Of a stretch of 64,000 nucleotides of DNA, positions 2,157-64,000 are shown piece after piece; position 1 is the first letter of the stretch, and each line of letters opens with the position of its first letter. This DNA is from a virus (taxonomy: Duplodnaviria; Heunggongvirae; Uroviricota; Caudoviricetes). The stretch lies in the IMG/VR virus record IMGVR_UViG_2693429668_000006. One strand, written 5' to 3'. Both the position numbers and the translations under genes were made by a program. The notes below the pieces were generated by a model. It ran no database searches. It had not been told where the DNA came from and was given only the letters and a program-made list of their open reading frames with translations.

Positions 2157-2543
2157 ATGTCTGATAACAAGATTGAATTTATAGAAAGTCGCTACGCTGC
2201 TTTTATCGCAGGGTTGATTGAATCCTCACCTATGAGCCAGGCCCAGATAGCCAAAACAATTGGGTATAAAAACGCCAACAACCTTTCTTTAATTAAAAGC
2301 GGCAAAATTCCTTTGCCTATCGATAAGGTTCGTCCGCTGGCGCTGGCACTGGGCATTGAGCCAAGTCGTCTTATGATGATGGTGCTGGAAGAACGCCAAC
2401 CCGAACTCGCAGCATTTTTATACAAAGAAGGCACTGCTCCTCTTAACGAGGACGAAAAACAGGTTCTTGCTGCATATAACGAGCGATTCGGTAAAGAGAA
2501 AGGCGCATCACAAAAGGTTGTTGAGGCCATAAAGTCTCTATGA
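2157..2543 (+). CDS. HTH XRE-family transcriptional regulator
   Basis: Helix-turn-helix-like segment SQAQIAKTIGYKNANNLSLIKSG; divergent from integrase. Confidence 0.55.
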   Translation: MSDNKIEFIESRYAAFIAGLIESSPMSQAQIAKTIGYKNANNLSLIKSGKIPLPIDKVRPLALALGIEPSRLMMMVLEERQPELAAFLYKEGTAPLNEDEKQVLAAYNERFGKEKGASQKVVEAIKSL

Positions 2544-14806: not shown

Positions 14807-16147
14807 TTAGGTAACGTCTAAGATTCGCTCAATGAAGCGCATTTGTTCGAGGTTTTGTTTAACGCGAATGCTGATCCCTCCCTGCTGGTTACGTGAACCG
14901 GCAAAGTAGAGACGAGCCTCTCCTTTCGCTTCTTCTTCTTCGGTTTTGTTGATCGTTATTACCAGGTCAGCAATACGTACTTTTTCGATGTTGTCGGCAG
15001 CGTGCATCATTGTGGCAACTTCTGACGCGCCACCTTCACGGTTTGTCTGCGATGCCGTGATCCCAGCAACGTTATGCTTGTCATAAAGAGCACGTAAATC
15101 GGTGTAGATACTACGAATGTTGGCGCGATCATCACGAAGGTCATAACTGGCACGCATCAAATCTGCGTAGTCGACAACAACCATGTCAGGCACCATGCCG
15201 TTGGCTTTCATGCTGTTAAGCATACGGTCCAGATCTGCCGGTGACATACTTCCTGACGGACGCTCAACAACCCACAAACTACCAATCCCCTTAGAGGCTC
15301 CCAACTCTGCCAACTTACGATGAACTTCATCGCGCCGTTCCACCAACTTGGACATTTCCGTCTCCGACAATCTTGCATCAAAACGGTCGGACAAAATGTT
15401 GGTGTGAACCTCCAGCGAGAGATACAGAACATTGTAGCCAGCAAGCGTTGCGTTTATGGAAAACTCGCCCATTGCGGTCGATTTACCGGATTTAGCGAAC
15501 CCCATGAAGAGCACCATTTCGCGCTTTGCCCAGCCTTTTTGGTACAGCAACCTATCGAGAAGAGGGAGTCCAGTTGTAATACTGTTTGGTACATACTCCT
15601 CTGAAGCCTCATATTCACGCGCTTTCAATCGCTCACTTGCGGAGGTGTAGTAGTCATAGATTCCGGTCGCTTCGTTCGATCCAATCTGCTGAACCTTGGC
15701 CATGATTGCCATCGCCCCCTGAAAGTCGCCCTTCTCTTTCAGTTCAGCAGCCTTAATCAGAGCATCATCAAACGCTACGCTTTTTGCGAAGGTTGATACC
15801 TGGTCAACCATGTACGAGGTATCGGACAATTTTTCTGCAAGGATGCGCTTAAACGCAACAACAACATCGGCGAATAGTTCCTCACGGATAGTCTTATCGC
15901 GTTTCGCACGCTTAAGCATATCCAGAATTGCAGATGAAGAGGGCGCGCTCTTGTACATACGGTAATAGCCCGAAACCATATTAACCAATATGGCATTGGC
16001 CGCATTGGCAAATTGGCTAGGCACAACCAGATCTCCCGCACGAGTAAGAAACTCGTGATCACGACAAAAATATGCCGTCAGTCTGTTCTGGAAATCTTCA
16101 TCAAACTCTTCGGACAGCCCGCGTCCTGTATGGCAAAGTTCGGTCAT
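14807..16147 (-). CDS. DnaB-family replicative helicase
   Basis: Walker A GFAKSGKST, Walker B VVVDYADLM, RecA-like C-terminal domain. Confidence 0.7.
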   Translation of the reverse strand: MTELCHTGRGLSEEFDEDFQNRLTAYFCRDHEFLTRAGDLVVPSQFANAANAILVNMVSGYYRMYKSAPSSSAILDMLKRAKRDKTIREELFADVVVAFKRILAEKLSDTSYMVDQVSTFAKSVAFDDALIKAAELKEKGDFQGAMAIMAKVQQIGSNEATGIYDYYTSASERLKAREYEASEEYVPNSITTGLPLLDRLLYQKGWAKREMVLFMGFAKSGKSTAMGEFSINATLAGYNVLYLSLEVHTNILSDRFDARLSETEMSKLVERRDEVHRKLAELGASKGIGSLWVVERPSGSMSPADLDRMLNSMKANGMVPDMVVVDYADLMRASYDLRDDRANIRSIYTDLRALYDKHNVAGITASQTNREGGASEVATMMHAADNIEKVRIADLVITINKTEEEEAKGEARLYFAGSRNQQGGISIRVKQNLEQMRFIERILDVT

Positions 16148-16166
16148 GTGCTTTCCTTTGTTTTTT

Positions 16167-16182
16167 AAACAAATTGTTTTCT
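16167..16182. promoter_or_regulatory. operator-like palindrome AAACAAATTGTTTTCT upstream of helicase gene
   Basis: Member of recurring AACAAnTTGTT motif family. Confidence 0.4.
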
Positions 16183-18870: not shown

Positions 18871-19230
18871 TCACCCTTTCTTCATCAACTCGCGTTTAAT
18901 TTCATCGGTACGCATCGTGACATCGGCAGCTGTGATCGCCTCGTTAAGTTTCACGATGTCCTCGATTTCCTGCGGTGTCTTCTCCGCAAGATGGAAAATA
19001 GCAGCACGAATCACGTCAGAACGAGTGAACTTCTCGAAGCGAGGGATGAACTTCATCATCTCCAGCAGTTCGAAGTATTCGTCCTCCAGTGACATTGTGC
19101 GGCTTTTAATTTTCTCTTTGCCACGAGTCGGGCGTCCCTGTGGTCTGACTGGTTGGCGCAAAGGAGTTGTGTTCTTAGCCGGTGCATCAGGCTCTTTGCG
19201 CTTTGCTAGGTCACCCATTTTCATGGACAT
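18871..19230 (-). CDS. small partition protein (ParG-like ribbon-helix-helix centromere-binding protein)
   Basis: 119 aa, immediately downstream of ParA with overlapping start/stop; RHH-like C-terminal segment. Confidence 0.45.
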   Translation of the reverse strand: MSMKMGDLAKRKEPDAPAKNTTPLRQPVRPQGRPTRGKEKIKSRTMSLEDEYFELLEMMKFIPRFEKFTRSDVIRAAIFHLAEKTPQEIEDIVKLNEAITAADVTMRTDEIKRELMKKG

Positions 19231-19898
19231 TATTCTTCTTCCTCCAGACTCAACAGATAATCTACAAATTCTTCAAACTCGGCTTCCGCCTTTTTGTCGC
19301 GCTCGCTACCGGTCATTTCAAAGATAGAACGACCAGACTCTTCCGCATCATCATAGACGTTGCGGTTATATAGATTGACTGGCGCAGACTCGATGCCAAA
19401 CGTCTCAACAATCTCTTTAGCCGCCAGAATGCGAGACACTTGTGATGGCAAAGCCGGGCACTGGTTCATGACCGCGCGGACCTTCACTTTATCGTTTACA
19501 TTACGAACATTGTCGATAATAGGATCGATGTCACGCAGAGATTTCAAATCACGACGCTTAGGACGAAGCGGGATAATGATAACGTCGGCCATCAGCATCG
19601 CTTGTCGCTGAATTTCGGAGTCAAAGCCACCAGCATCTACCACTACAAACTCAGCTCTACCCTGAAGCGATTTTAGGTGCTTAATGATGTCATCCTGAAC
19701 GTATGCAAAAGGAATCAGCTCAAGGTCTTCGTTCTGTCGACGGTCTTCACACCAGCTTGTTGTCGTGCGCTGAATATCTATATCAGTGATATAAACCTTC
19801 TTCTTCTTTTTGACTTTCAGGCAAACGGCAATTTGCTGGGCAACGGTGGATTTGCCAGGCCCGCCCTTTGTGCCGCCAACCACAAAGATCTTGGTCAT
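19230..19898 (-). CDS. ParA-family partition ATPase
   Basis: Deviant Walker A VVGGTKGGPGKST at N-terminus; 222 aa. Confidence 0.75.
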   Translation of the reverse strand: MTKIFVVGGTKGGPGKSTVAQQIAVCLKVKKKKKVYITDIDIQRTTTSWCEDRRQNEDLELIPFAYVQDDIIKHLKSLQGRAEFVVVDAGGFDSEIQRQAMLMADVIIIPLRPKRRDLKSLRDIDPIIDNVRNVNDKVKVRAVMNQCPALPSQVSRILAAKEIVETFGIESAPVNLYNRNVYDDAEESGRSIFEMTGSERDKKAEAEFEEFVDYLLSLEEEE

Positions 19899-19933
19899 TG
19901 GAGAGTTCCCTTTGCGTCTATTATTATCGTCTG

Positions 19934-19950
19934 AAACAACTTGTTTTCTT
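19934..19950. promoter_or_regulatory. operator-like palindrome AAACAACTTGTTTTCTT upstream of parA
   Basis: Recurring AACAAnTTGTT motif; adjacent palindromes GTACGGTGATATGCCGTAC and GGCTATAGCC in the 19898..20178 intergenic region. Confidence 0.4.
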
Positions 19951-42275: not shown

Positions 42276-42709
42276 TACTCACCGCCTTGTGCTTTCAGGA
42301 TGCCTTCAATCATCTCGACAATTCCTTTCGCTTTGACACCAACCTGATTACCAATCACACGTAGACCGGCAATGCCTTCATTGTCTGCAATTGACTCCAA
42401 CTCTTCTCGTGTGAAAGTCTGGATCTGTTTGGCCGGTTCATCTGGTGTCCCACGTTTCATTGGCACAATGTCAGGTGCTGCTGGCTCGGTAATCAGGTCT
42501 GCGGTCAACTCGCCACGATCACTGTATGCGGCAGACGGAGAAACATTTTTGCCCTCGACTGTTGATGCTCGCATTGAGGCACAAATCCTTTGCTGATCGA
42601 TAAAAGGCAACTCCGCTACGGACACCCCGTTCTCGAACTGAACGCCGCACAACATTCCCGAATAACCGGAAAATTGCGGTTCTAATAAAACAATTTTTGC
42701 TGGTTTCAT
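42275..42709 (-). CDS. hypothetical structural-region protein
   Basis: ORF track, 144 aa. Confidence 0.4.
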   Translation of the reverse strand: MKPAKIVLLEPQFSGYSGMLCGVQFENGVSVAELPFIDQQRICASMRASTVEGKNVSPSAAYSDRGELTADLITEPAAPDIVPMKRGTPDEPAKQIQTFTREELESIADNEGIAGLRVIGNQVGVKAKGIVEMIEGILKAQGGE

Positions 42710-42753
42710 AACGCATTCTCTCTACTTGGGCGGCTTTCGCCGCCCAATATTGA

Positions 42754-43674
42754 TTATTCCTGTGCAGCAGTGACTTCTACGGTCGCTGTCGCTTTGTGGC
42801 TACCATCTTGGGTAGTAACCTCGATTGTGGCAGTACCAGCCGCAACGCCAGTTACAACACCGGTTTCGCTATCCACCGTTGCAAACTCGGTATTTTTGGA
42901 TTCCCAAGTAACGGTTTTATTTGTTGCTCCTGCCGGCTCGACATTTGCGGTCAGCTGAACAGTTTTGTTTGCCTCAACGGTTGTGCTATTTGGGTCGATT
43001 TCGACGCCGGTAACAGCCACAACAGGCGCAGTTACTTCCACCGTTGCAGTTCCCTTTTTGCTGCCATCTTGGGAAACGATCTCAATCGTCGCAGTGCCAA
43101 CTTCTACACCAGTAACGTTCCCGCTCTGGTCTACCGTTGCCTTGTCTTCATTTTTGGAAGACCAAGTAACTGCCTTATTCGTCGCATTTGACGGCTGAAC
43201 ATTCGCTTTCAGACTGACTGATTTCCCTTTCTCAACAGAGGTTGAGTCTGGCGTTACCGTTACGGATTGAACGGCTACCGGATTTACGGTGACTTCCACT
43301 GACGCGGAAAGCTGGGTTTCCTGATCAGTTGCGGTAATTTTCACTTTGCCTGGTGCTACGCCAGTTACTAATCCAGTGCCGTTGACGGTTGCAATTTGAT
43401 CATTGGCTGACTTCCAGGTGAATGAACTGGCACTCTTACCCATAGTAATACCTGCACTAAGTTGAACAGTTTTCCCAACCAAAACTGACGGTGAAGCCGG
43501 GGTTATGTTTACGGATTGGGAGAAGGGAACCGCCTGCAAACAAGCAGATAGCTGACTTTGTTGTCGCTCGGTTAAAGGTTCATCGGAGATAGAATTGGTA
43601 AATCCGGCACGGCACATATGCCCCGTAAAATCCGAAAATGCCTCTTCCGTAATCTTCATCTTTTGTTCTGGCAT
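42754..43674 (-). CDS. Ig-like (Big_2-type) triple-repeat protein, probable capsid decoration protein
   Basis: Three repeats of about 90 aa with pattern VT..V.V.P...TV..G.T.QL.A.V.P..AT.K.VTW.S.N...ATVD..G.VTGV..G.ATI; immediately after major capsid gene. Confidence 0.55.
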   Translation of the reverse strand: MPEQKMKITEEAFSDFTGHMCRAGFTNSISDEPLTERQQSQLSACLQAVPFSQSVNITPASPSVLVGKTVQLSAGITMGKSASSFTWKSANDQIATVNGTGLVTGVAPGKVKITATDQETQLSASVEVTVNPVAVQSVTVTPDSTSVEKGKSVSLKANVQPSNATNKAVTWSSKNEDKATVDQSGNVTGVEVGTATIEIVSQDGSKKGTATVEVTAPVVAVTGVEIDPNSTTVEANKTVQLTANVEPAGATNKTVTWESKNTEFATVDSETGVVTGVAAGTATIEVTTQDGSHKATATVEVTAAQE

Positions 43675-47158: not shown

Positions 47159-48415
47159 CTATCGAGAACCACCAAGAATAACACGGTTTTTGACTGGATA
47201 CCTACGATGTACTGGATAGCCCAATGCGTCTGCACTATGCTCAATGCCACCTGTCTTATCCATATCTCGTGTTCCAGGCTTGTAGATGACTTTTTCCAGT
47301 GAATCAATCAAATGCTTGCACTTCGGATCGATATACAGCCGGATATCTCCAGATGCGGTCATCAGCATTCGGTTAACAGCATTAACACGATCCGCAATTG
47401 GCGGGTGCTTTTTCGAATAATCGACACGTAAGAATCCCTTCTCTTTGAATATGTCGACGTCAGACTCCCCGCGAGCATGTTGGCGATAAGCACCTGCCGG
47501 ATCTGGAAATACCGTTATCTGTGATTTCCAGCGCCAGAAGCGTCTCTCAAGCTCATCACAAACCTCTGCCGTGTTAGAGGAAAAGAGCACCAATTCATCA
47601 ATTGCCCATAGCTCACCATTTGGCTGAGGTTGCAAAATTACTGAAGACATCGGGTCAATGTTGAAGTCCTGCCCTACCCATATAGGCAACCGAGGGTTGA
47701 ACTGAAGCGGTTTTACATGCACGTTACGATCGAACGGGTAGTAAACGCGCCCGGACATGTTCTCAAAGCTCGCCAGGTACTCCTGAGCGAACGATTTCGG
47801 GTCCATATCGTTCTTAGCAGCTTCAATTTCCGCCGTAGGTACAAACGGAGAATCGGCAGTTACAAACTGCCAGCTCTTCCACTGTCCCTTTCTTTGCAGC
47901 TCTACGTTCTGGCCTATAGTCCACAGTTTGTGAAATTCCGAGAAGCCTTTTGGCGTACCAATGATCAGTGCACCGCCGCGTGTCGATGAAAGAGTAGGTC
48001 GTAACACCTTGTACCAGGTGTCAGCCTTCATATCCTGAAATTCATCAAGCACTACAAAATGCAACGCTACGCCGCGCAGAGTGTCAGGCTTATCAGCACC
48101 TTTGAGGGCGATCTCCGAACCGTTCTTCAACACGATTGTCATCGTGGTGTCGTTCTTTTTCCTAACCCACTTACGAGGCAGAACTTCCTGTAGATCGTCC
48201 CACAAAATCTGGCGAGCCATCTGGTAAGTAGGAGCGACATACCAGACTCTTTGCTTTTTTTCCTTTGCCGCCGCACGAATAATAGTGGAGATCGACAACC
48301 GGGATTTTCCCCAGCGTCGACCAGCACAAACAACTTTAAATCGATGCGGAGACTGGAAGACTTTCATCTGTCCAGAATGCAGTTGCACAAGACTGAGCGA
48401 GGACGGGATTGCCAT
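47159..48415 (-). CDS. terminase large subunit
   Basis: Walker A VVCAGRRWGKS, Walker B-like HFVVLDEF, C-terminal nuclease-like region. Confidence 0.75.
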   Translation of the reverse strand: MAIPSSLSLVQLHSGQMKVFQSPHRFKVVCAGRRWGKSRLSISTIIRAAAKEKKQRVWYVAPTYQMARQILWDDLQEVLPRKWVRKKNDTTMTIVLKNGSEIALKGADKPDTLRGVALHFVVLDEFQDMKADTWYKVLRPTLSSTRGGALIIGTPKGFSEFHKLWTIGQNVELQRKGQWKSWQFVTADSPFVPTAEIEAAKNDMDPKSFAQEYLASFENMSGRVYYPFDRNVHVKPLQFNPRLPIWVGQDFNIDPMSSVILQPQPNGELWAIDELVLFSSNTAEVCDELERRFWRWKSQITVFPDPAGAYRQHARGESDVDIFKEKGFLRVDYSKKHPPIADRVNAVNRMLMTASGDIRLYIDPKCKHLIDSLEKVIYKPGTRDMDKTGGIEHSADALGYPVHRRYPVKNRVILGGSR

Positions 48416-49047
48416 TATTCGTCCTCCCCTTCACTTCCATCATCTGTCGCATCAAATTCGCTTAGAGCTTCTTCTTCCAACGTCTCAAGCAATTCGTCAT
48501 CGATGATTTCAGGCTCGTCGTCTTCCTGACGTAATTTCGCCACCTGGGAAGGCGTAAGCTCACCAAATACCAGGTTCGGAATTTCTTCCTCGTCATTTTC
48601 CGCATGATCCATGCCCAATGCTTTGGACGAAACTTCAAAGCATTTTGCAAGGGTATTACTGGCTCTCTGTAAGCTCTTGAGAGAATCCTCAATCGCCCCT
48701 AAAGGCTTACCCTCACGTTTGGCCGTAGTGACTTCGACCATCACCATCTGCCCCAACGCATACGCCCAGCCGTCATAACGTGTACGACGTTCTTCTATCT
48801 TTTCCGCACGGGCTTTAGCGCGAAGCTCTGCGTCAGATTTAAGAGACTCACGAACCATCTTCCCAACAGAGTCCGCGCCTTTCTCTAATCCTCGCTTTTT
48901 GAAATGTCTGGAGAGTGTTTCACGACGAATGCCGTACTCTTCCTCCAGCTTTGAGAGTGTATATTCGCCTGACGTCCATTTGGCTTCAGCTTCGGCCCAC
49001 TCCGCTGGTGTCAGGCGAGTTTTTACCTCGTCTTTTTCGACCGTCAT
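48415..49047 (-). CDS. terminase small subunit (putative)
   Basis: 210 aa, N-terminal HTH-like region, acidic C-terminus; start/stop overlap with large terminase. Confidence 0.5.
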   Translation of the reverse strand: MTVEKDEVKTRLTPAEWAEAEAKWTSGEYTLSKLEEEYGIRRETLSRHFKKRGLEKGADSVGKMVRESLKSDAELRAKARAEKIEERRTRYDGWAYALGQMVMVEVTTAKREGKPLGAIEDSLKSLQRASNTLAKCFEVSSKALGMDHAENDEEEIPNLVFGELTPSQVAKLRQEDDEPEIIDDELLETLEEEALSEFDATDDGSEGEDE

Positions 49048-49086
49048 AGATCCCTCTAAAACACACAGAGCGCGTCCATGCGCTCT

Positions 49087-49127
49087 AAAACAACTTGTTT
49101 ACTGCATCTGCTAACCAACTTGTTTTC
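49087..49127. promoter_or_regulatory. two operator-like palindromes (AAAACAACTTGTTT and AACCAACTTGTTTT) upstream of terminase genes
   Basis: Recurring AACAAnTTGTT motif. Confidence 0.4.
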
Positions 49128-49163
49128 TGGGGTGTTTAATTAGGTCTGGCATGTCTTACGAAG

Positions 49164-54365: not shown

Positions 54366-54830
54366 ATGAAGTCTCCCATACTGTTCACTTTCTGTTCTAA
54401 AACTATCATGAAATACTCGCTTCTCCCTCTACTAACGTTACCAGTGTTGATGCTTGCCGCGTGCCAATCACACCCAATATCAATCCATGACGCCAAACCA
54501 GCACCGCAGGCCAAAGTGTTAAAGTATCAAAGCGCAGCGCCAGCTACGTTGGTGGTAATGAGAGACACAGGTTTTGTAGGAGCTGGATGTGATGCTTCCA
54601 TTTTCATCAACGGCGAAACTGTCGCAAAACTGGCTACAGGCGAAAAAGCGACTTTCCATTTAAATGCCGGAGAATTAATTGTGGGTGCATCTCTTGAAGG
54701 TGCAGGTTTATGTGCTCTAAACCCCGCTCGTCAAGAGCGAGAAACGACTCTGAAGAATGGAGACACAAAAGCGTTCAGGGTGTTTACCAGCAATTCTGGT
54801 GACATCGACATTCTGCCAACAACTCTGTGA
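54366..54830 (+). CDS. lipoprotein
   Basis: Signal peptide with lipobox LMLAAC. Confidence 0.5.
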   Translation: MKSPILFTFCSKTIMKYSLLPLLTLPVLMLAACQSHPISIHDAKPAPQAKVLKYQSAAPATLVVMRDTGFVGAGCDASIFINGETVAKLATGEKATFHLNAGELIVGASLEGAGLCALNPARQERETTLKNGDTKAFRVFTSNSGDIDILPTTL

Positions 54831-54834
54831 TGAC

Positions 54835-55359
54835 ATGACAACCAAAGATATTACCTACGGTATCCAAGCTGAACTCTGGCCGCGAGATTACACTAACGTT
54901 GAAAAACTACTGATGTTCTGGCGCAGAGAACAAATTCCTGTAAGGGTCACTCTCGAAGATGGCCAGGCGTTTTGCATGTACGTTTATGGCCTCATGCCAT
55001 CTCGTAACAAAGTTGACCTTTGCCCAGCCCCTTTTGACAAAGAAAATCGTATAAGGCTCCCACTTGAACGCATTAGTACAATTGAATCAGGTGTGGTTGA
55101 CAGTATCGCTCACGATTTCAAAGGTCGACTAACAGTTCACCCTGATTATGTCGATAATCGGCCATCACGCCGCGATTTTTTTGCAATTTGCAACCAAGCC
55201 TACAAAGCAAACAAATCTATAAGGGTGTACATGGCGGATGGCCGTGAAATTGAGGGGGTGTCAGCAGGCGCAGATGCTTGTCAGGTTACACTACGTGTCG
55301 AGAACGGTAGAAAAATAGTTGTTTTGTTCGATTGGGTTGAACGAATTTTGCCTTTTTGA
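54835..55359 (+). CDS. hypothetical protein; start uncertain
   Basis: ORF track (54757 start overlaps previous gene); internal ATG at 54835. Confidence 0.4.
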   Translation: MTTKDITYGIQAELWPRDYTNVEKLLMFWRREQIPVRVTLEDGQAFCMYVYGLMPSRNKVDLCPAPFDKENRIRLPLERISTIESGVVDSIAHDFKGRLTVHPDYVDNRPSRRDFFAICNQAYKANKSIRVYMADGREIEGVSAGADACQVTLRVENGRKIVVLFDWVERILPF

Positions 55360-55954: not shown

Positions 55955-56605
55955 ATGGCTAACATTATCATTTCTAAAAAATCCATCATTGAAGCTGCTT
56001 CCATTGTATCCGATGAACTGCGCGAAAAAGCAGATCTGGCAACTCAAACATATAACGAACATTATAAAAATGGTACGCACACTAAAGCAGACAAAGCAAA
56101 TATGCAAGCTGCGACCACTAAACTTGCTTACTTCATCAACAACGTCGTAAACGCAGTAGAAGACGAAAAATTATGCTCTGTTTTCTACTATGCGATTAAA
56201 GCAAGCAAACAAGCGCCAGAAGTATTTTTCCGTGATGCAATGACTAATAGTTATTCTCTGGAAAAACTGGTTTATCTGGTTAAATCAATTAAATCTGGTA
56301 AATGCGTTTATTCCATCGCTGATATGTCTGGATCTCGTGTATTCGCTTTAATCGATATGATTAACGACGAGATCGACACGTTCACTAATGGCGCTGTTTT
56401 CGATTTAATGAATGAAGCTAAAAAAGCGTGTGAAATTAAATTGGACGCTGGTTATACTCAAGCCAACCAGTTGATCAATCTTTGCGAACGTCTTGGACTT
56501 GTTGAAAAAGTCAAAGGAGCTGGGAGCGCGAAAGCTGGTACTCAGCAATATCGCTTCATTAAAAATGATTTCTACAATTATTTAGCTGATGCTTTCAAAG
56601 CGTAA
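55955..56605 (+). CDS. hypothetical protein (AT-rich early-type gene)
   Basis: ORF track, 216 aa; AT-rich upstream region; hairpin 56618..56636 downstream. Confidence 0.5.
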   Translation: MANIIISKKSIIEAASIVSDELREKADLATQTYNEHYKNGTHTKADKANMQAATTKLAYFINNVVNAVEDEKLCSVFYYAIKASKQAPEVFFRDAMTNSYSLEKLVYLVKSIKSGKCVYSIADMSGSRVFALIDMINDEIDTFTNGAVFDLMNEAKKACEIKLDAGYTQANQLINLCERLGLVEKVKGAGSAKAGTQQYRFIKNDFYNYLADAFKA

Positions 56606-56653
56606 TTAATGGAATCAAGCGCCCACTATGGGCGCTTTAAAGGAGCTTTGAAA

Positions 56654-56857
56654 ATGGTCAGCTATGACAAGATCCGCGCGGAATATCGCGCAAAGTATCG
56701 CGCTTATAAACTAGAATTAATCGATGATTTAATCGCGCAACGCGACCAATTAAATTTTACGTTTTCTGATTTGCTTAACAGCAAGCGAGATTGCAAGCGC
56801 AAACGTGAATACTTACGTTTAAGCGCATTAATCGGAAAACTTCAAAATTCTATTTAA
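56654..56857 (+). CDS. hypothetical small protein
   Basis: ATG at 56654 preceded by SD AAAGGAG; the ORF-track start at 56609 would include the hairpin. Confidence 0.4.
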   Translation: MVSYDKIRAEYRAKYRAYKLELIDDLIAQRDQLNFTFSDLLNSKRDCKRKREYLRLSALIGKLQNSI

Positions 56858-56877
56858 TTTTTTTAAGGAGCTTAATC

Positions 56878-57108
56878 ATGTTTGTTCTTATCGCTGGCGT
56901 TAACGTCCATAACGAATATTATGTTAATCGCATCGCTGGGATCGCTGGTTACGCTGGGCGCGCAGTCGAGTTTATCGATGAAACAACGCGTAAAATTGAT
57001 TTATTGAGCGACCAGGAGCGAAAAAAAGCAGACGTGAACGACGCTGATATATTTTTAATGTTAAAAGCGTTTGTAGAAATGGGATTTAAAATCAGTTTAC
57101 ACAAATAA
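56878..57108 (+). CDS. hypothetical small protein
   Basis: ORF track, 76 aa; followed by two terminators. Confidence 0.4.
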   Translation: MFVLIAGVNVHNEYYVNRIAGIAGYAGRAVEFIDETTRKIDLLSDQERKKADVNDADIFLMLKAFVEMGFKISLHK

Positions 57109-57113
57109 AATCG

Positions 57114-57139
57114 AGCGCCCACTATGGGCGCTTTTTTCG
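57114..57139 (+). terminator. rho-independent terminator
   Basis: Hairpin AGCGCCCACTATGGGCGCT followed by TTTTTCG; identical hairpin at 56618..56636. Confidence 0.55.
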
Positions 57140-57159
57140 TTTCCAATACTTCCACAATA

Positions 57160-57186
57160 ACGCGCCATTGATGGCGCGTTTTTTAT
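57160..57186 (+). terminator. rho-independent terminator (second, tandem)
   Basis: Hairpin ACGCGCCATTGATGGCGCGT followed by TTTTTTA. Confidence 0.5.
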
Positions 57187-57600
57187 TGTCTTTAACTCAC
57201 TCCAACAACATAAAAATAAGCGCCAAAATAACGCCATAAACGCGCTTTTATATCCTTACCAGTACATACCCATTACTTAACACATTAACGCGCTTAAAAC
57301 GCGTTATATTGCGCTATAGCGTATGGTTAATCATTGGCTTTTAGTCTTGCTATGTGATCCGCGTTTATTTGTCGGCGCGGATCGGCATTTTGTTTTGTTC
57401 CGTATCCGCTCGCGTATTATGTGCGCGTGATTTTTCACATAATCACACCACTTAATCACGTATGTGATTATGCTACGAAAGAAATCTGGATGTCTCAGGC
57501 GACGAAAGTCATCATAATTTTCCCCGCTCGCCTGTCCGACAACCGCTGGTTGGATTCCACCAGCTTCCCGATGTTTTTTTCTACATAAAGGCGAATGCAG

Positions 57601-57710
57601 CCGTTTCCCGAAAAAATCCTGGCCGTTTCCCGTCGGCTCATGAATACGTTCCTCGCCGTTTCTGAAAATTTCCCTGCGGCAGCTGGTGGCTATAGAGAAA
57701 GGGCCGTTTC
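57601..57710. repeat. iteron cluster 1 (four GCCGTTTC(C/T) repeats)
   Basis: CCGTTTC at 57601, 57623, 57656, 57704. Confidence 0.55.
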
Positions 57711-57722
57711 TGGCCCTCTTCT
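57697..57722 (-). terminator. rho-independent terminator after gene 57726..58208
   Basis: Minus-strand hairpin GGGCCAGAAACGGCCC followed by TTTCTCT. Confidence 0.45.
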
Positions 57723-57725
57723 CAG

Positions 57726-58208
57726 TTACACGCCATCAAGGATGTGGATGCGGTTGCTTGCGTATACATTCAGCATAAAGTTAGCGCAAAACAGTTTCCA
57801 TGTATCAACGCCAGCGGTATACGTAATGTTTTTGCATTTAATCGCATTGTTGGCGATCCGCATCCCCTGCGATACTGCTTCATCGTCGGAAAATTTGAAC
57901 GACGATTGAGTTTTAATCCAGACAGAAATCTGCGTAGCGAACTCAATCAGCTTGGACTGGCAGAATCGCCCGGAGCGCACCGGAAAGACGAACGTTCCGA
58001 ATCCAGAATTTACCACATATGCTTTCTCAAATACCCGCGAGTAACGACGATTGCCAATGATGTCGCGTGCAATAATGCATTTTTCTTGTGCTGACAGTTC
58101 TACCGTCTCATTGTCGCGCCATGCACCAAGTACTCGTTTTTCAATGTCAGAGAACGTTACAGCGATATTGCCATGTGCGGGTGCGTTTACAGTAGCGATA
58201 AAATTCAT
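57726..58208 (-). CDS. hypothetical protein (accessory array)
   Basis: ORF track, 160 aa; own promoter/operator motif at 58227..58260. Confidence 0.5.
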   Translation of the reverse strand: MNFIATVNAPAHGNIAVTFSDIEKRVLGAWRDNETVELSAQEKCIIARDIIGNRRYSRVFEKAYVVNSGFGTFVFPVRSGRFCQSKLIEFATQISVWIKTQSSFKFSDDEAVSQGMRIANNAIKCKNITYTAGVDTWKLFCANFMLNVYASNRIHILDGV

Positions 58209-58226
58209 GATTAATTCCTTATCGTA

Positions 58227-58260
58227 AATAACAAATTGTTTTCTTGTTGGTGTTAATTAT
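58227..58260 (-). promoter_or_regulatory. conserved promoter-operator element (extended -10 TGCGATAAT plus AACAAATTGTT palindrome)
   Basis: Near-identical element repeated at 58714..58750 and 60851..60890. Confidence 0.5.
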
Positions 58261-58412
58261 CGTTGTACGAATAAGGCGTCAAAGTGGAAAGTTGCGGTAG
58301 CCGGACGGGAACAGGTGGGTTTGTCGGTTGCCTGGAGGTAAGAGGTTGGTGTTTTTAGCCTGCGGGAAACAGGATGGTCATTTAAGGCCACCAGCATTGG
58401 TGGCCTTAATCT

Positions 58413-58700
58413 TTAGTGGAGCAGACCGATGTCGATGGTATCCCCTGAATCATCCACACGGATCATCAGCATGGCAAAGGCGTTTAGTGGATAGCTTGCG
58501 TGCCATTCAGGGAAGCGGTCATCTCGCATGAAGTCGGCAATGTCGTAAACGCATCCCTCAAAGTGGAAGAATCGCGTGCTTACCTGCTCGTCATAATCCA
58601 CATGATCCATTTCTTGCTGTTCTGTTTCCGGCAAGTCCAGCCATGATTCAAGAAATACATTTTGTGCTTTAGGGGTAATGGTGAAATCAGTCATGAGCAT
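58413..58700 (-). CDS. hypothetical small acidic protein (accessory array)
   Basis: ATG at 58700 with SD GAGG; ORF track start at 58826 would overlap the promoter element. Confidence 0.4.
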   Translation of the reverse strand: MLMTDFTITPKAQNVFLESWLDLPETEQQEMDHVDYDEQVSTRFFHFEGCVYDIADFMRDDRFPEWHASYPLNAFAMLMIRVDDSGDTIDIGLLH

Positions 58701-58883
58701 ATCCTCACTGCGTAAACATGTTGTTTTCTTGTTGGTGTAATTATCGCAGTGTAGATAAGGCATAAAAGAAGTTAATACAGGCTGAATACACAAGAAAGGT
58801 TCTGGAAGTTGATAGCCAGGTTTCAAACTAACCTTCGGTTATTAAAAGTCATTTAAGACCACCAATGCTGGTGGCCTTAATAA

Positions 58884-59027
58884 TTATCGCCCGATTACGC
58901 TAAGGATCTTTTCCTCAACTGATTTGTTGTTGCGACTAAACTGCCTTGCGTATCTGATGACAGAAGAGGCGTTTTGCTTTCTGACCATCTCGGCTCTTTC
59001 CTTCAGGCGTTTCTTGAAATCGCCCAT
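58884..59027 (-). CDS. possible small basic protein (47 aa)
   Basis: Hand-translated MGDFKKRLKERAEMVRKQNASS...; below ORF-track cutoff; hairpin 58855..58878 downstream. Confidence 0.25.
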   Translation of the reverse strand: MGDFKKRLKERAEMVRKQNASSVIRYARQFSRNNKSVEEKILSVIGR

Positions 59028-59029
59028 AT

Positions 59030-59404
59030 TTACCACCAGGCGCAGAAGGTCAGTCTGTTATTGTGAAAGTCGTGGTTCTTAATCAGATCTTCCACAAGCT
59101 CTTTCAACTCCCCCACATCATGCCAGTAACCTTCATCGTACTCCTGACTGCCGAAGAAAAAACCTTCCCGGGTAGGCAAGTACTCTTCGCAATTACTTTC
59201 GTTTATGTGCATCAAATGAGCCTTCAGAAAACAAATGTCATTCATCGTTAATTCTAAAAGCTCACAATTTTCGACTTCACCTACGTTGCGCTCCATCCAC
59301 CCAACGAGCGCATTGAACTTACGGAAGTAAGCAACCTGCTTTCTGGATGCCTCGTTATTCAGATCGTTTTTAGGCTGTGTCTCGATATAGATATCAAGTC
59401 CCAT
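59030..59404 (-). CDS. hypothetical protein (accessory array)
   Basis: ATG at 59404 with SD AAGGAA. Confidence 0.4.
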   Translation of the reverse strand: MGLDIYIETQPKNDLNNEASRKQVAYFRKFNALVGWMERNVGEVENCELLELTMNDICFLKAHLMHINESNCEEYLPTREGFFFGSQEYDEGYWHDVGELKELVEDLIKNHDFHNNRLTFCAWW

Positions 59405-59490
59405 GATGGTTTCCTTATTAAGTTGCTTCAGTGAAATCATTTTCACAAATCAGATAAGGCAGAAAACAAATTGTTATCGGGCTTAATAAA

Positions 59491-59517
59491 ATGGCGCGGT
59501 TTACGCGCCATTTAAAG
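59491..59517 (-). terminator. rho-independent terminator after gene 59522..59917
   Basis: Hairpin ATGGCGCG-GTTTA-CGCGCCAT followed on minus strand by TTTATT. Confidence 0.5.
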
Positions 59518-59521
59518 AGGA

Positions 59522-59917
59522 TTAAGCGAATACGCTTTCAGGGATTAAGGTGTCGGCAGGAATGCCAGAGGTAATGCGCAGGCCGTACTGACCAATCCAG
59601 GTAGTGTTGGTATTCAGGTTGGAGGCGAATACGGTGTTAACCATATTCATCATGGTTTCAAACACCTCTTCATCAACCTGGCGGAAGTAGCTCTCGATTT
59701 TCAGCAGCAGCGGGTCAGTTGCATCGAGAATGGACTGGTATTGAGTCGCGTACTCGCCGTCGGAGTCATCACCTTTACGCACGATCGTACTGGCCTGTAC
59801 TTCGGCGCCAGTTTCGGTGTTGTACGTAACAACGGTGATTTTTGCCACATTCTTACCTTCGGCGGTTTCAGAGGCATAGTAAACATCAACTGTCAGTTTT
59901 TCGCGTTTAATGGTCAT
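59522..59917 (-). CDS. hypothetical protein (accessory array)
   Basis: ATG at 59917 with SD GGAGAG. Confidence 0.45.
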   Translation of the reverse strand: MTIKREKLTVDVYYASETAEGKNVAKITVVTYNTETGAEVQASTIVRKGDDSDGEYATQYQSILDATDPLLLKIESYFRQVDEEVFETMMNMVNTVFASNLNTNTTWIGQYGLRITSGIPADTLIPESVFA

Positions 59918-60043
59918 TTCACTCTCCGTAGTGTATTGGTTATTTTTATATTCTATGATCGTAAGTATGTACTTACAATACAAAAAAGCCCCGTAAGGAT
60001 GGCGGGGCTGTCGTACTGTCGACTAATTACCACTTGCACATTA

Positions 60044-60355
60044 TCAGGCTATTGCCATCACTGATGCTCTCTGAATCTCTTGCTGGGCCACGCGGTTAAC
60101 TTCCATCAAGGCCAGTTCGAGCTGATGTTCCGGCCACATTCTTTGAAATGCCACCCAGCCTTTTCCACGCTGGCGACGAACATTCATTACATAACGAGTA
60201 AAGGTGTTTTTATCGAAAGACACCGCTGTTTCACGGAACAGACGAATAGAGGTTCCATTGGCAACGATGTCCAGCAAAGTTAATTGAGCAACCAGCGCAG
60301 GCTTCTCTTTTCTCTTCTGGTCTTTGTCCAGACCAAGAACCAATGATTTTTTCAT
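60044..60355 (-). CDS. hypothetical basic protein, possible DNA-binding (accessory array)
   Basis: ATG at 60355 with SD GGAG; 103 aa. Confidence 0.4.
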   Translation of the reverse strand: MKKSLVLGLDKDQKRKEKPALVAQLTLLDIVANGTSIRLFRETAVSFDKNTFTRYVMNVRRQRGKGWVAFQRMWPEHQLELALMEVNRVAQQEIQRASVMAIA

Positions 60356-60508
60356 CACAACTCCGTAAACAACTTGTTTTCTCAATGGCGTAAATAATAC
60401 CAGTAAGAAAACGGCTACAAAGCATAATGATCAGGTGCATGATCGATATGCAGGTTCTTCCCTGCGGCTATAGAGAAATTAAGCCAGCAATGCTGGCTTT
60501 GGTTGGGA

Positions 60509-60838
60509 TTACGCGAATACCTCAAGAAACTCCTGAACGTCCCAATGCTGGACGAGGTGAAGATAGACCTTAGAAATCACGTCATTTTCGCTATCGCATG
60601 TGAAGTAGTACTTCTGGCTGCGGTTGTATGTGTCCACACAAAATTCGCTCATATCCATAAAGTCAGCATCTTCACCCATGTCGCAAATCATCAAAGCAGG
60701 TGCATCATCACGAGTCATCAGCTCAAGCACCCACCGCGAATTGATCAGAGTGGAAGACCAACCTTCCAGCTCATAGAACTGGTCAAACTCTTTTTGAGTC
60801 AATTTCTTGATTTGGTTGATGTCGATATGTGCAAACAT
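60509..60838 (-). CDS. hypothetical acidic protein (accessory array)
   Basis: ATG at 60838 with SD AAGGA; the first ATG in the ORF lies inside the conserved operator motif. Confidence 0.4.
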   Translation of the reverse strand: MFAHIDINQIKKLTQKEFDQFYELEGWSSTLINSRWVLELMTRDDAPALMICDMGEDADFMDMSEFCVDTYNRSQKYYFTCDSENDVISKVYLHLVQHWDVQEFLEVFA

Positions 60839-61202
60839 AAAGCAATCCTTAAACAACATGTTTTCTTGATGGTGTTATTATCGCAATAACGCACAGGCGA
60901 AAAAGGATTTTATTCCGGTGAATGTGGTTTTGGCAGTGAGTTTTCAGGTTCAGTACCGAGAACACTTTTTACATTATTCTGATTTAGTGGCCGAAGGTGG
61001 CTGGTGGGCAGAATAATCATCTCCCCGAAAACCTACTGAAATCGATTGTGACCCGTTGGCTGTCTGGCACAATTACGCTGTAGCTGGGCATTCAGAGGGA
61101 ATCCAGCGGTAAGTAAGTTCGCCTGCACGTGAGCGCCTCTCTTCTTCCCGCACATTACAGGTGGGTAGCCGCAACTCTCCCTCACGCTATACCGGTACGC
61201 CG

Positions 61203-61337
61203 CCGTTCCTGAACCGGCATCGAGCCTTTTCCCGAAACCCACACAGGCAACTCGACCGTTTCCCTGAAAACCTCCAGCCGTTCCCCGAAGGCAACCCAGC
61301 CGTTTCTGTAGCGGGATGCAACCTTTTCCCTGTATGG
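61203..61337. repeat. iteron cluster 2 (six CCGTTTCCC-type repeats phased about 21-22 bp)
   Basis: Repeats start at 61203, 61225, 61257, 61278, 61299, 61322. Confidence 0.6.
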
Positions 61338-62400
61338 ACCGAAGGCTGACCGTAGGGGTGTTACGGGGGATAAAATCAGGAGTTGAATAAATACGAAAAA
61401 GGAGGCGACACCCCTCCTTCCCTCCCCACTTATACATACCTGGCTTCTTCGCTATACATGTTGTGTTTTATCTGTCTCAACCTCTCTATAGGCGTTAATG
61501 CTCACTCCTTCCAGAATGTTCTATACGGCGACTATTTCTGTTGGTGAATTGGGCGTGTTGTTCTCTCTGTCGGTGTAAATGGTTTCGTTCGTTTTGCGGT
61601 GGTTCTTCTATGGGGTGTTCTCGTCGTTTTGGTGATTGTTCTTCTCCGTGTATGGAGTAATGGCAGGTGGGCGATTGCTTTCGTTATTGTGTTTGAGTTG
61701 TTTGTCTGGAGTGTGTGAAAGGCTTTTGTAGTTATTCGTGTATTGGGTAATGGCGTTTCCCGTGATTGTTATGTTTCGTGTCTTTTGGGATTGAGAGAAA
61801 CCTTGCGGTTACAGGCTTCGTTGGGGTTTCAGCGGTTCAGGTGTTTCTTCGCTGTTTGGGTAATGGCGTGTCGTGGGTATCGCGCGTATGAATGTTTTCG
61901 GATTGCCTGTGAAAGTTAGGTTGGTTGTCCGGTAGCCTGGGGAGAAGAGGTGGGTCTTTTCGGTAGCCTGCCATAAAGAGGTTGGTTGTTTTGGGGAATG
62001 GCATGTGTGTTATTTAGTTGTTTTGTTATGCCTGAAAATAAGTTGTTTATATGGTTGTGTAACGCAACGGGAACGATTTTGAGCGTGTGTTTTTGTTGGT
62101 AGTGTGTTGGGTCGTCTGTGGTGAAAATTGGACGCTGTGGCGCTGTCTGCTGCGTAGAATTACGGGTATAAGCAGTGATGTGTGAAAACGTCAATTTTTT
62201 AGACCAAATCGGATGAAAGCGTTGATGTTTCGTTGATCTGTTATTCAGTTGTTTTCTTGATTGTATAAACAACTATAACTTATTGATATTTAAGGATGTG
62301 ATTGCGGGTATGGAAGGGGAGTAGTGGCGATCAACGGATTCTTATAGAAAAGAATCAAATTGTGACCGCCATTATCAACGGTTTGAATCTGTTTGCAGAT

Positions 62401-62700
62401 TTACCAGTTCCAGCACTCAAGCCCTTCAACGACCGGCGCACCACAATCAAAATGTACAGAGTCAAAGCCTACATCAAGTACTTTCTGAATGTTAGCAATC
62501 GCGCCTTCGGATATACCATATCGACGCAAGTCGTCTTTCCAGACATCATCCTGTAACCCGGCGTGGACAATACAACCGCCGTCAATTTGCGAAACCCAAT
62601 CCAGCTCATTGCTTGCGATCATGAATCGGCGAGCATCTTCCTCTGATGTATGAGATGAGCTGATCAATGCCACCTGGTAGGCTTGGGTAATGTTCAACAT
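62401..62700 (-). CDS. hypothetical protein (last gene of element before host junction)
   Basis: ATG at 62700 with SD GGAG; operator-type motifs at 62713..62779 upstream. Confidence 0.4.
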   Translation of the reverse strand: MLNITQAYQVALISSSHTSEEDARRFMIASNELDWVSQIDGGCIVHAGLQDDVWKDDLRRYGISEGAIANIQKVLDVGFDSVHFDCGAPVVEGLECWNW

Positions 62701-62815
62701 TTCAACCACTCCAAAACAAGTTGTTTTCTTATGTGGTTTATTATCTCCATCAACAAAAGGCAGAAAACAAATTGTTTTAGGTACTGTGTAAATCAGAAGG
62801 GATTGTGTCTATATG

Positions 62816-62848
62816 AAAATGCCCGGCGTGTTGCCGGGCATTGCGAAG
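62816..62848 (-). terminator. metG transcription terminator
   Basis: Hairpin GCCCGGCAACACGCCGGGC directly after metG stop on minus strand. Confidence 0.5.
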
Positions 62849-62861
62849 AGAGGTTGTTTAA

Positions 62862-64000
62862 TTACTTAACCTGGTGGCCAGGTTTAGCACCAGCATCCGG
62901 GCTTAACAGGAAGATATCTTTCCCACCGGGGCCAGCAGCCATCACCATACCTTCGGAGATACCGAAGCGCATTTTACGCGGAGCCAGGTTAGCCACCATA
63001 ATGGTGTGACGACCAATCAGTGCCTGTGGGTCTGGATAAGCAGAACGGATGCCTGAGAAGACATTGCGTTTTTCACCACCTAGATCCAGCGTCAGACGCA
63101 GCAGTTTGTCAGAGCCTTCAACAAACTCCGCGTTTTCAATCAGCGCCACGCGCAGGTCAACTTTGGCGAAGTCATCAAAGGTGATGGTTTCCTGAATCGG
63201 ATCGTCTGCCAGCGGGCCAGTAACTGGCGCGGCAGTGGCTTTCACTTCTTCTTTAGAGGCTTCCACCAGTGCTTCAACCTGCTTCATGTCGATGCGGTTA
63301 TACAGTGCTTTGAACGGATTAACTTTGTGCGCCAGCAGCGGTTGCTGGATACCATCCCAGGTCAGTTCTGTATTCAGGAATGCTTCTGCACGTTCAGTCA
63401 GTTTCGGCAGTACCGGCTTCAGGTACGTCATCAGCACGCGGAACAGGTTAATGCCCATAGAGCAAATCGCCTGCAGATCGGCATCGCGTCCTTCCTGCTT
63501 CGCCACCACCCACGGAGCCTGTTCATCGACATAGCGGTTAGCCAGGTCAGCCAATGCCATGATTTCACGGATAGCTTTACCAAATTCGCGGCTTTCCCAT
63601 GCTTCGCCAATCACTTCAGCGGCATCAGTAAAGGTTTTGTACAGTTGCGGGTCAGCCAGTTCGCTTGCCAGCACGCCGTCAAAACGCTTGTTGATAAAGC
63701 CTGCATTACGGGAGGCCAGGTTAACCACTTTGTTCACGATATCGGCATTCACGCGCTGAACGAAATCCTCCAGGTTGAGATCGATATCATCAATGCGCGA
63801 AGAGAGTTTCGCAGTGTAGTAGTAACGCAGGCTGTCAGCGTCAAAATGATTCAGCCAGGTGCTGGCTTTAATAAAGGTGCCGCGAGACTTGGACATCTTT
63901 GCGCCGTTCACCGTCACATAGCCATGAACAAACAGGTTGGTCGGCTTGCGGAAGTTGCTGCCTTCCAGCATGGCAGGCCAGAACAGGCTGTGGAAGTAAA
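62862..64000 (-). CDS. metG: methionyl-tRNA synthetase, C-terminal part (5' end beyond window)
   Basis: Translation ends ...[23 protein letters not shown] and matches the enterobacterial MetG anticodon-binding and C-terminal tRNA-binding domains. Confidence 0.9.

Follow-up and report, generated by a model that had tools for sequence, protein, structure and literature searches.

The genes described here form an array of seven small minus-strand units at positions 57726-62700 of a 64,000-nucleotide stretch of viral DNA (IMG/VR record IMGVR_UViG_2693429668_000006; hereafter the window), and we are concerned both with these genes and with the palindromic sequence that precedes most of them. To judge by its sequence, the window is a piece of an SSU5-type phage-plasmid of the pLF82/Cyrano lineage, since it matches plasmids and phages alike and combines tail, capsid, portal and terminase genes with genes of plasmid type. 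The segment 57000-62860 matches plasmid pTIC (MF554642.1) at 100% identity and ~190 Escherichia coli plasmids of 105-115 kb at 98%; it is present in 246 of 5426 complete E. coli genomes (4.5%), in every case on a plasmid and in none on the chromosome, and the plasmids that carry it are typed as non-mobilizable. Its matches among phage records are Escherichia phage Cyrano (= pLF82) at 98% and Salmonella phage SSU5 at ~70%. According to the RefSeq and Cyrano annotations, the structural genes just named lie elsewhere in the window, together with genes for a DnaB-like helicase, a primase, a ligase, a small ParA, ParB-like proteins and a UvsW helicase. With its co-linear nucleotide and protein similarity, and with structural and maintenance genes joined on one non-integrated replicon of ~100-115 kb, the element belongs to the SSU5-like group of phage-plasmids (SSU5, pHCM2, pLF82-Cyrano and pMT1).

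We number the array genes P1 to P7 from low to high coordinate, and all seven of the open reading frames (ORFs) listed in the original prediction were confirmed. P1 (57726-58208) encodes a basic protein of 160 amino acids with an isoelectric point (pI) of 9.2 (PHROG 1641, function not assigned), P2 (58413-58694) a very acidic one of 93 amino acids (pI ~4.1; PHROG 1845), P3 (59030-59404) an acidic one of 124 (PHROG 7971) and P4 (59522-59917) an acidic one of 131, with a beta-sheet and two helices; P5 (60044-60355) encodes a basic protein of 103 amino acids (pI 10.5; PHROG 5125), P6 (60509-60838) an acidic one of 109 and P7 (62401-62700) an acidic one of 99. The five acidic proteins have pI values of 4.1-4.7. 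P2 most likely starts at the ATG at 58694 rather than at 58700, as the spacing to the Shine-Dalgarno (SD) sequence is good there and its homologues begin at the same point. A further ORF of 50 codons, P2b (58884-59036, minus strand; CYRAN_109 of Cyrano; basic, pI 11), overlaps the stop codon of P3 and had been overlooked. RefSeq calls P2 an "ABC transporter", a name for which its sequence gives no support and which looks like a propagated annotation error; the source names of the other array proteins are all "hypothetical".

P1, P2, P4, P5 and P7 are core genes of the family, conserved at 82-37% amino acid identity in SSU5, pHCM2 and the Enterobacter and Klebsiella elements, and Yersinia pMT1 also has P1 and P2. 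Only P3, found in E. coli and some Klebsiella lineages, and P6, found in E. coli alone, are lineage-specific, and hence "cargo", the term first applied to the array, misdescribes five of its seven genes. The ratio of non-synonymous to synonymous substitution rates (dN/dS) is 0.12-0.19 for P1 (against SSU5 and Klebsiella) and 0.08-0.12 for P2, values indicative of purifying selection and thus of genuine coding sequences. The seven proteins all fall in PHROG families without an assigned function, and homology searches found relatives of P2, P4 and P7 in the SSU5-like group only (an exhaustive profile search with P4 returned 36 small unannotated proteins). The initial remark that these proteins have no recognisable domain stands for six of them, but not for P7, whose C-terminal part matches DUF5983 (PF19419; E = 6.9e-11, 42.8 bits against a gathering cut-off of 27). 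Searches of NCBIfam and PADLOC gave nothing above noise for the seven proteins, and no anti-defence, replication or structural family was found for them in Pfam, NCBIfam, the PHROG functional categories, PADLOC or PDB sequences; the PDB sequence searches returned nothing credible, the similarity of P6 to multicystatin (E = 1e-4) including no single aligned stretch that passed. We also considered P4 as a CARF or ring-nuclease-like binder of cyclic oligonucleotides, an idea that was rejected when the Rossmann-like CARF fold was not found.

The genes appear to be built as monocistronic cassettes, as had been proposed: each has its own predicted sigma-70-type promoter, with a weak -35 box and often an extended -10 box, which would be followed by an operator, an SD sequence, a small ORF and, usually, a terminator hairpin. 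The operator is a 19-bp inverted repeat, AGAAAACA-N3-TGTTTTCT, with the core AGAAAACA-N3-TGTTT. Its occurrence is far above chance, the form ACACCAACAAGAAAACAA being found 4 times at up to 3 mismatches where 0.08 are expected, and the form GAAAACAANTTGTT 25 times where 3.75 are expected (none of 100 shuffled sequences had as many). The claim that a near-identical element precedes most of the genes was thus borne out for six of the seven.

The sites are of two kinds. In class A, which is the arrangement at P1, P2, P5, P6 and P7, the gene strand reads -10 box, 10-11 nt, AGAAAACA-N3-TGTTTa, 10-20 nt, SD, ATG, and the operator therefore lies between the -10 box and the SD, at ~+3 to +22 from the predicted start. 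All of these sites and boxes are on the minus strand. At P1, the operator AGAAAACAATTTGTTATTT (58226-58244) is accompanied by a predicted -10 box GATAAT at 58256-58261 that is invariant in 6 genomes. The predicted operators of P2 (58711-58729), P5 (60364-60382) and P6 (60848-60866) accompany predicted extended -10 boxes at 58740-58748 (TGCGATAAT), 60394-60402 (TGGTATTAT) and 60877-60885 (again TGCGATAAT), and that of P7 (62711-62729) a predicted GATAAT at 62739-62744. The -10 boxes of these five genes are GATAAT or TATTAT, often with a preceding TG; across the regulon, those of class A are of the GATAAT or CTAATT type. Class B is the mirror form, aAAACA-N3-TGTTTTCT, and lies over the -35 box, directly after the preceding putative terminator. 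It is found at P3, where the site CGATAACAATTTGTTTTCT (59461-59479) follows the P4 terminator and covers the -35 box of a promoter with the predicted extended -10 TGTGAAAAT (59439-59447), and at P7, which has both classes, its class B site (62762-62780) being centred 51 bp upstream of the class A centre. P4 does not share this promoter type, contrary to what had been supposed: it has a promoter of a different class, TTGTAA-17-TAGAAT (59950-59978, minus strand), with the palindrome GTAAGTACATACTTAC in the spacer, and as this is a GTAAGT box P4 probably belongs to a second circuit.

Six units end in a GC-rich hairpin directly past the stop codon (-15 to -21 kcal/mol; z -2.1 to -5.1), in agreement with the hairpins originally noted after most genes; no strong hairpin was found after P7. 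These hairpins, all on the minus strand, lie at 57695-57723 after P1 (-21 kcal/mol in a 63-nt fold, z -2.3; then UUUCUCUAUAG), 58382-58409 after P2 (-20 kcal/mol, z -5.1), 58853-58880 at the end of the P3/P2b unit (-17 kcal/mol, z -4.9), 59489-59513 after P4 (-15 kcal/mol, z -4.0; then UUUUAUU), 59982-60009 after P5 (a GC hairpin with U6; z -2.3 in an 87-nt fold) and 60481-60499 after P6 (-16.7 kcal/mol in a 57-nt fold, z -2.1; then UUAAUUUCUCUAUAG). Those of P1, P5 and P6 are only marginally better than shuffled sequence (z -2.1 to -2.3). The U-tracts are clear after P5 and P4 and partial after P1 and P6, and the tail UUAAAUGAC follows P2 and P2b. A motif TCTCTATAG(CC), which may be part of a terminator tail or a processing site, immediately follows the hairpins of P1 and P6 and recurs once in a non-coding region (57690-57700, 60465-60480 and 61478-61490).

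Every promoter that lies between a class B and a class A site shows the same spacing of exactly 51 bp from centre to centre, and it does so throughout E. coli, SSU5, Enterobacter, pHCM2, pMT1 and Klebsiella and in at least two unrelated promoter families. A distance of 51 bp is five helical turns, which suggests cooperative binding across the core promoter. The three central bases of the operator vary freely (AGT, ATT, ACA, AGA, ACG, TGT), whereas its arms are fixed; moreover, the class B sites precede the -10 box, so that the regulated mRNA does not contain them. Together with the phasing, these properties speak for a symmetric dimer that recognises double-stranded DNA. On an informal comparison, the sites of host transcription factors (Fis, FNR, NrdR, MntR and the LacI family) did not fit in spacing or in sequence.

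The palindrome is not confined to the array. Within the window there are 12 promoter-associated sites, and those outside the array, all on the minus strand, precede a CobT-like gene (start 1594; site 1611-1629, centre 1620), the DnaB-like helicase gene (14807-16147; site 16164-16182, centre 16173), the ParA-like ATPase gene (19230-19898; site 19931-19949, centre 19940) and terS (48415-49047), with which the structural operon begins and which has two tandem sites at 49085-49128 (centres 49094 and 49119). In the full Cyrano genome ~15 promoters carry it, among them those of terS (two sites), parA, the helicase, cobT, nrdB, tciA, an Eae-like gene and CYRAN_58, 87, 93, 101, 105, 106, 108, 110 and 111, with the class A sites 18-47 nt ahead of the start codon. 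The same operator thus recurs at many separate promoters, and it must be regarded as a regulon-wide element rather than as a feature of the array; contrary to what was first believed, the array genes are accordingly not individually regulated.

Conservation of the regulatory modules is much tighter than that of their surroundings. The elements SSU5, S. Typhi pHCM2, an Enterobacter plasmid, a Klebsiella phage-plasmid and Y. pestis pMT1 have ~70-77% nucleotide identity to the region, and across six genomes the -10 box, the operator and the SD are near-invariant while the flanking intergenic DNA diverges. The operator is kept in relatives from E. coli, Salmonella, Klebsiella, Enterobacter and Yersinia, and a scan of viral contigs gave many matches on contigs of ~100-110 kb. 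The genes behind these modules can nonetheless be replaced: E. coli P6 and SSU5_112 are differing proteins behind a near-identical promoter-operator module, and the P6 promoter slot holds a different ORF in SSU5, pHCM2 and Klebsiella. On these comparisons, some positions of the array behave as exchangeable slots, with P3 and P6 the apparent lineage-specific fillers of conserved promoters.

Expression data are available for the E. coli LF82 lysogen. In RNA sequencing of an overnight culture in lysogeny broth, the median score of the Cyrano genes was 9.8 (PMC9928086, table S1), and in the same table the array genes score 5-25, terS 7, the helicase 21 and cobT 8, as compared with 50 for ParA, 89 for the next gene (C29) and 55 for the third gene of the parA operon (PMC9928086). 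The array is therefore silent in the plasmid state, which fits repression, and the genes that carry the operator are off in the lysogen with the exception of the parA operon, the only operator-bearing unit that is clearly on. P2b stands at ~6x background. Cyrano virions increase 39-fold after ciprofloxacin.

We consider it rather probable that the array is an accessory early-gene block of an SSU5-type phage-plasmid, wired by the palindromic operator into a switch that also commands helicase, nucleotide, partition and packaging functions. Six of the seven array genes would then belong to a plasmid-wide regulon. In the plasmid (lysogenic) state, an element-encoded dimeric repressor would sit on the sites and occlude RNA polymerase, and the class A and class B sites that bracket a promoter at 51 bp would permit cooperative binding or DNA looping. 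Were the repressor lost at infection or induction, the small genes would be switched on along with the helicase-primase, nrdB, cobT and terS. The exactness of the 51-bp spacing argues for a repressor that binds DNA and acts cooperatively.

Candidates for this repressor were ranked by conservation, expression and the logic of autoregulation. The best is a 119-amino-acid ParG-like protein (CYRAN_29) encoded directly after ParA, which 736 of 797 plasmids carry at 90% identity or more. It reads as a ParG-type protein, with a basic tail and then a putative strand-helix-helix. Its operon has a class A site and is expressed in the lysogen, as expected for autoregulation. A bolder proposal is that this ParA partner doubles as the master silencer of the element, acting at ~15 palindromes of 19 bp and thereby coupling partition to the repression of replication, packaging and accessory early genes; we regard it as tentative and, on balance, unlikely.

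Several considerations weigh against the switch as we describe it. The parA operon is expressed although it bears the operator. Most prophage genes are silent in lysogens, so that the silent state of the array says little about this particular operator. A consensus promoter scan did not call the array promoters, their -35 boxes being weak, and both the promoters and the repression are predictions from the DNA; likewise, we infer an early or host-directed action of the small proteins. Finally, Pfam, PHROG functions and PDB give the ParG-like candidate no support for a DNA-binding fold, and it is absent from Yersinia pMT1, which retains the operators.

The principle of a dispersed operator is already familiar from P1 C1, N15 and the Kor proteins of RK2. 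In P1, whose genome was reportedly described by Lobocka et al. in 2004, the C1 regulon has one operator scattered over a phage-plasmid of ~100 kb, at many promoters that include that of the replicative helicase ban. The system described here resembles it in having a dispersed operator at a helicase and at numerous small-gene promoters that are silent in the plasmid state, and, judged by the predicted -10 and -35 boxes, its sites would overlap the core promoter or the start site, as an operator of the C1 type does. However, the P1 operator is an asymmetric 17-mer, ATTGCTCTAATAAATTT, whereas ours is a symmetric 19-mer of unrelated sequence; here terS and parA also carry the site, some promoters lie between two sites spaced at 51 bp, and a C1 homologue was not found. 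KorB and KorA of the IncP plasmid RK2, and omega of pSM19035, are global plasmid regulators that double as partition proteins. Their dispersed palindromic or repeated operators, the inclusion of the partition operon in the regulon and the position of the candidate binder after ParA are all points of likeness. In contrast, those systems belong to plasmids, not to phages, there is no sequence similarity, and the binding of a Par protein is here conjectural. If the ParG-like protein were indeed the silencer, global control in the style of KorB and omega would exist within a tailed phage and would have been kept in pHCM2 and in phage-plasmids of clinical E. coli and Klebsiella. Grigoriev and Lobocka are said to have described, in 2001, dispersed SopB centromere sites in phage promoter regions of N15. 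That element too is a phage-plasmid with partition-protein sites scattered among phage regulatory regions, but it has four sites and a type Ia ParB, as against ~15 sites and a hypothetical link to partition in the present case.

A description of the operator was not found in the searchable literature, which has next to nothing on how SSU5-like elements decide for the plasmid state or for lytic growth. These elements are common, the group takes in pHCM2 of S. Typhi and pMT1 of Y. pestis, and members bear resistance genes; a relative that infects E. coli K-12, PhiR41_1, is available. A single invariant operator at ~15 promoters marks a co-regulated gene set and offers an experimental handle on both the binding protein and the switch.

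Among the alternatives, the one that survives best concerns what the genes do: the small proteins could serve anti-defence or host takeover, for instance by mimicking DNA or by inhibiting restriction, CRISPR or abortive-infection systems, a possibility that we regard as doubtful. Five of the seven proteins are indeed small and acidic, the cassettes are monocistronic and silent in the lysogen, slots P3 and P6 swap ORFs between lineages behind a conserved promoter, and P7 has the DUF5983 domain. Anti-defence islands and the leading regions of plasmids are expressed on entry. They resemble the array in their runs of small, often acidic ORFs without an assigned function; they differ from it in that the array proteins have no homology to known families and are mostly the products of conserved core genes, and in that the element is non-conjugative. 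No sequence homology of the array proteins to the known anti-defence families (Ocr, ArdA/B/C, Acr, Tad, Gad, Rad and others) was found, and no fold homology of the P4 model. A published AntiDefenseFinder screen of 1227 SSU5-group contigs detected only Rad, and nothing in the Salmonella elements, which carry the core array. The comparison of structures suggested in the original prediction was made for P4, whose model was the only usable one and had no fold match; the model of P2 (predicted local distance difference test score, pLDDT, 52) was too poor for a fold search. The homology to ordinary replication or structural functions that would have spoken against an anti-defence role was looked for as well, and none was found. 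As no search tied the proteins to anti-defence, replication or structure, this reading is neither supported nor refuted. Most likely, these small proteins, restricted as they are to this phage-plasmid group, act on processes of the host or of incoming DNA during establishment or lytic growth, and the set defined by the operator narrows the candidates for host-takeover or anti-defence screening to seven family-restricted ORFs.

The remaining alternatives concern the palindrome itself. One would make it the operator of an ordinary CI regulon, bound by an Xre-type putative lysogeny repressor (the CYRAN_45 homologue, 2157-2543, plus strand). This protein is expressed at ~10x background in the lysogen and is present in all lineages, while SSU5, described as virulent, has no Xre gene. 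Yet SSU5 retains the AAACA sites, the divergent immunity region contains no AAACA-N3-TGTTT site, and the Xre protein is only 56-66% identical between genera whereas the AAACA operator is invariant. Moreover, the Xre promoter has a different palindrome of its own, GGTAAG(C/T)ACTTACC at +1, that is kept in E. coli, Klebsiella and Enterobacter. We therefore find an Xre regulon at the AAACA sites improbable; it is more likely that the Xre protein serves the GGTAAG boxes instead.

In SSU5 (NC_018843.1, around 42600-42760), the integrase, the Xre repressor, a small divergent ORF and a homologue of the very highly expressed CYRAN_43 are all missing; in Cyrano-type elements this set lies between the tRNA genes and cobT. 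Their absence may account for the description of SSU5 as virulent in its genome announcement (PMC5427195).

The second box family, (G)GTAAGT..ACTTAC(C), to which the Xre and P4 boxes belong (2110-2125 region, at +1 of the Xre promoter; 59950-59978, in the P4 promoter spacer), is itself conserved. Boxes of this type are found in Cyrano (OV696614.1) at 2023, 9022, 22451, 26660, 35610, 67886, 77447 and 79650, with half or imperfect copies before portal, tail, tail-fibre, holin, nrdA and dam genes; three full palindromes were counted against 0.68 expected. They may be CI-type operators or late-promoter boxes.

A further proposal is that the element acts in RNA, as a motif of the 5' untranslated region (UTR) through which a FljA-like protein would block the translation of ~15 mRNAs. 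Salmonella FljA represses fliC through its 5' UTR. A FljA-like gene (54757-55359, plus strand; PF03614, E = 1e-80, with a weak similarity to Hfq/LSM) lies only 2.4 kb from the array and is kept in all lineages including pMT1; the class A sites are in the predicted 5' UTR just ahead of the SD; and the fliC 5' UTR of Salmonella and Citrobacter bears CAAGTTGT, an 8-mer common to several operators, just upstream of its SD. But the likeness to FljA and fliC does not extend to the sites upstream of promoters, which are phased on DNA: class B sites precede the -10 and -35 boxes and lie outside the regulated mRNA, so that the motif is not confined to leaders. The fixed phasing of 51 bp would be meaningless for RNA, the shared 8-mer spans the three freely varying central bases of the operator, the dyad symmetry reaches 19 bp, and the repeat could not form a stable RNA hairpin because its loop would have only 1-3 nt. 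Such an RNA mechanism is, in our view, highly improbable. The full-length FljA homologue is in any event a conserved core gene of these phage-plasmids, pMT1 and pHCM2 among them, and may shut off flagellin in the host or work on mRNAs of the element itself.

Equally hard to sustain is the notion that the palindrome is an activator or promoter-specificity site, through which an element-encoded factor would switch the promoters on in the manner of MotA and Lpa: the -35 boxes are poor and class B sites are where a class II activator would bind, but class A sites, downstream of the -10 box and across the start site, are in the typical position for a repressor, promoters bracketed on both sides fit occlusion, an extended -10 (TGn) makes a -35 box or an activator dispensable, and the parA operon, which has class A only, is expressed in the lysogen.

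Between P6 and P7 lies a unit without genes (61396-62051, minus strand; C+A-rich on that strand and not protein-coding). It forms part of a gene-free stretch of ~650-800 bp whose compositional skew is strongest at 61450-62250, where the plus strand has a GC skew of +0.4 to +0.5 and an AT skew of -0.4 to -0.58. The unit has an operator-like site at its upstream end (62033-62051) and a terminator-like hairpin at its downstream end (61396-61422), and contains four repeats of GCCATTACCCAA and two of AGGCTACCG..CCNACCT; the latter also occurs upstream of P1 (58321-58384) and is kept in six genomes. SSU5, pHCM2 and the elements of Enterobacter and Klebsiella have a skewed gene-free gap at the same position. 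The stretch might serve as a lytic origin, bind protein at its repeats as an array of sites, or encode a non-coding RNA. CYRAN_103 and CYRAN_104, which are annotated within it, look spurious and are expressed at background. The idea that the C+A-rich stretch is a sponge for Hfq was rejected, as A-R-N runs, 2 in number where 4.3 are expected, show no enrichment, and a search of 56500-63000 against Rfam gave only sub-threshold matches to terminator-like small RNAs, at 57110-57194.

Between P7 and this skewed region most E. coli relatives have a gene of ~770 bp, CYRAN_102 (Cyrano OV696614.1, 93536-94270), which encodes a coiled-coil protein and is expressed at ~6x background in the lysogen; it is missing from the window and from pTIC, where the insertion point lies between 62401 and ~62300. 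On the other side of P7 there is a complete gene for methionyl-tRNA synthetase, metG (minus strand, 62862-64000 and beyond), followed by apbC/mrp, an arrangement common to the Cyrano/pLF82 lineage; the scores of metG and apbC in the LF82 lysogen are 16 and 92, against the median of 9.8. Lastly, short CCGTTTCCC repeats, in three exact copies with variants, occur at 57601-57637 and 61256-61314, in the non-coding stretches that flank the array.

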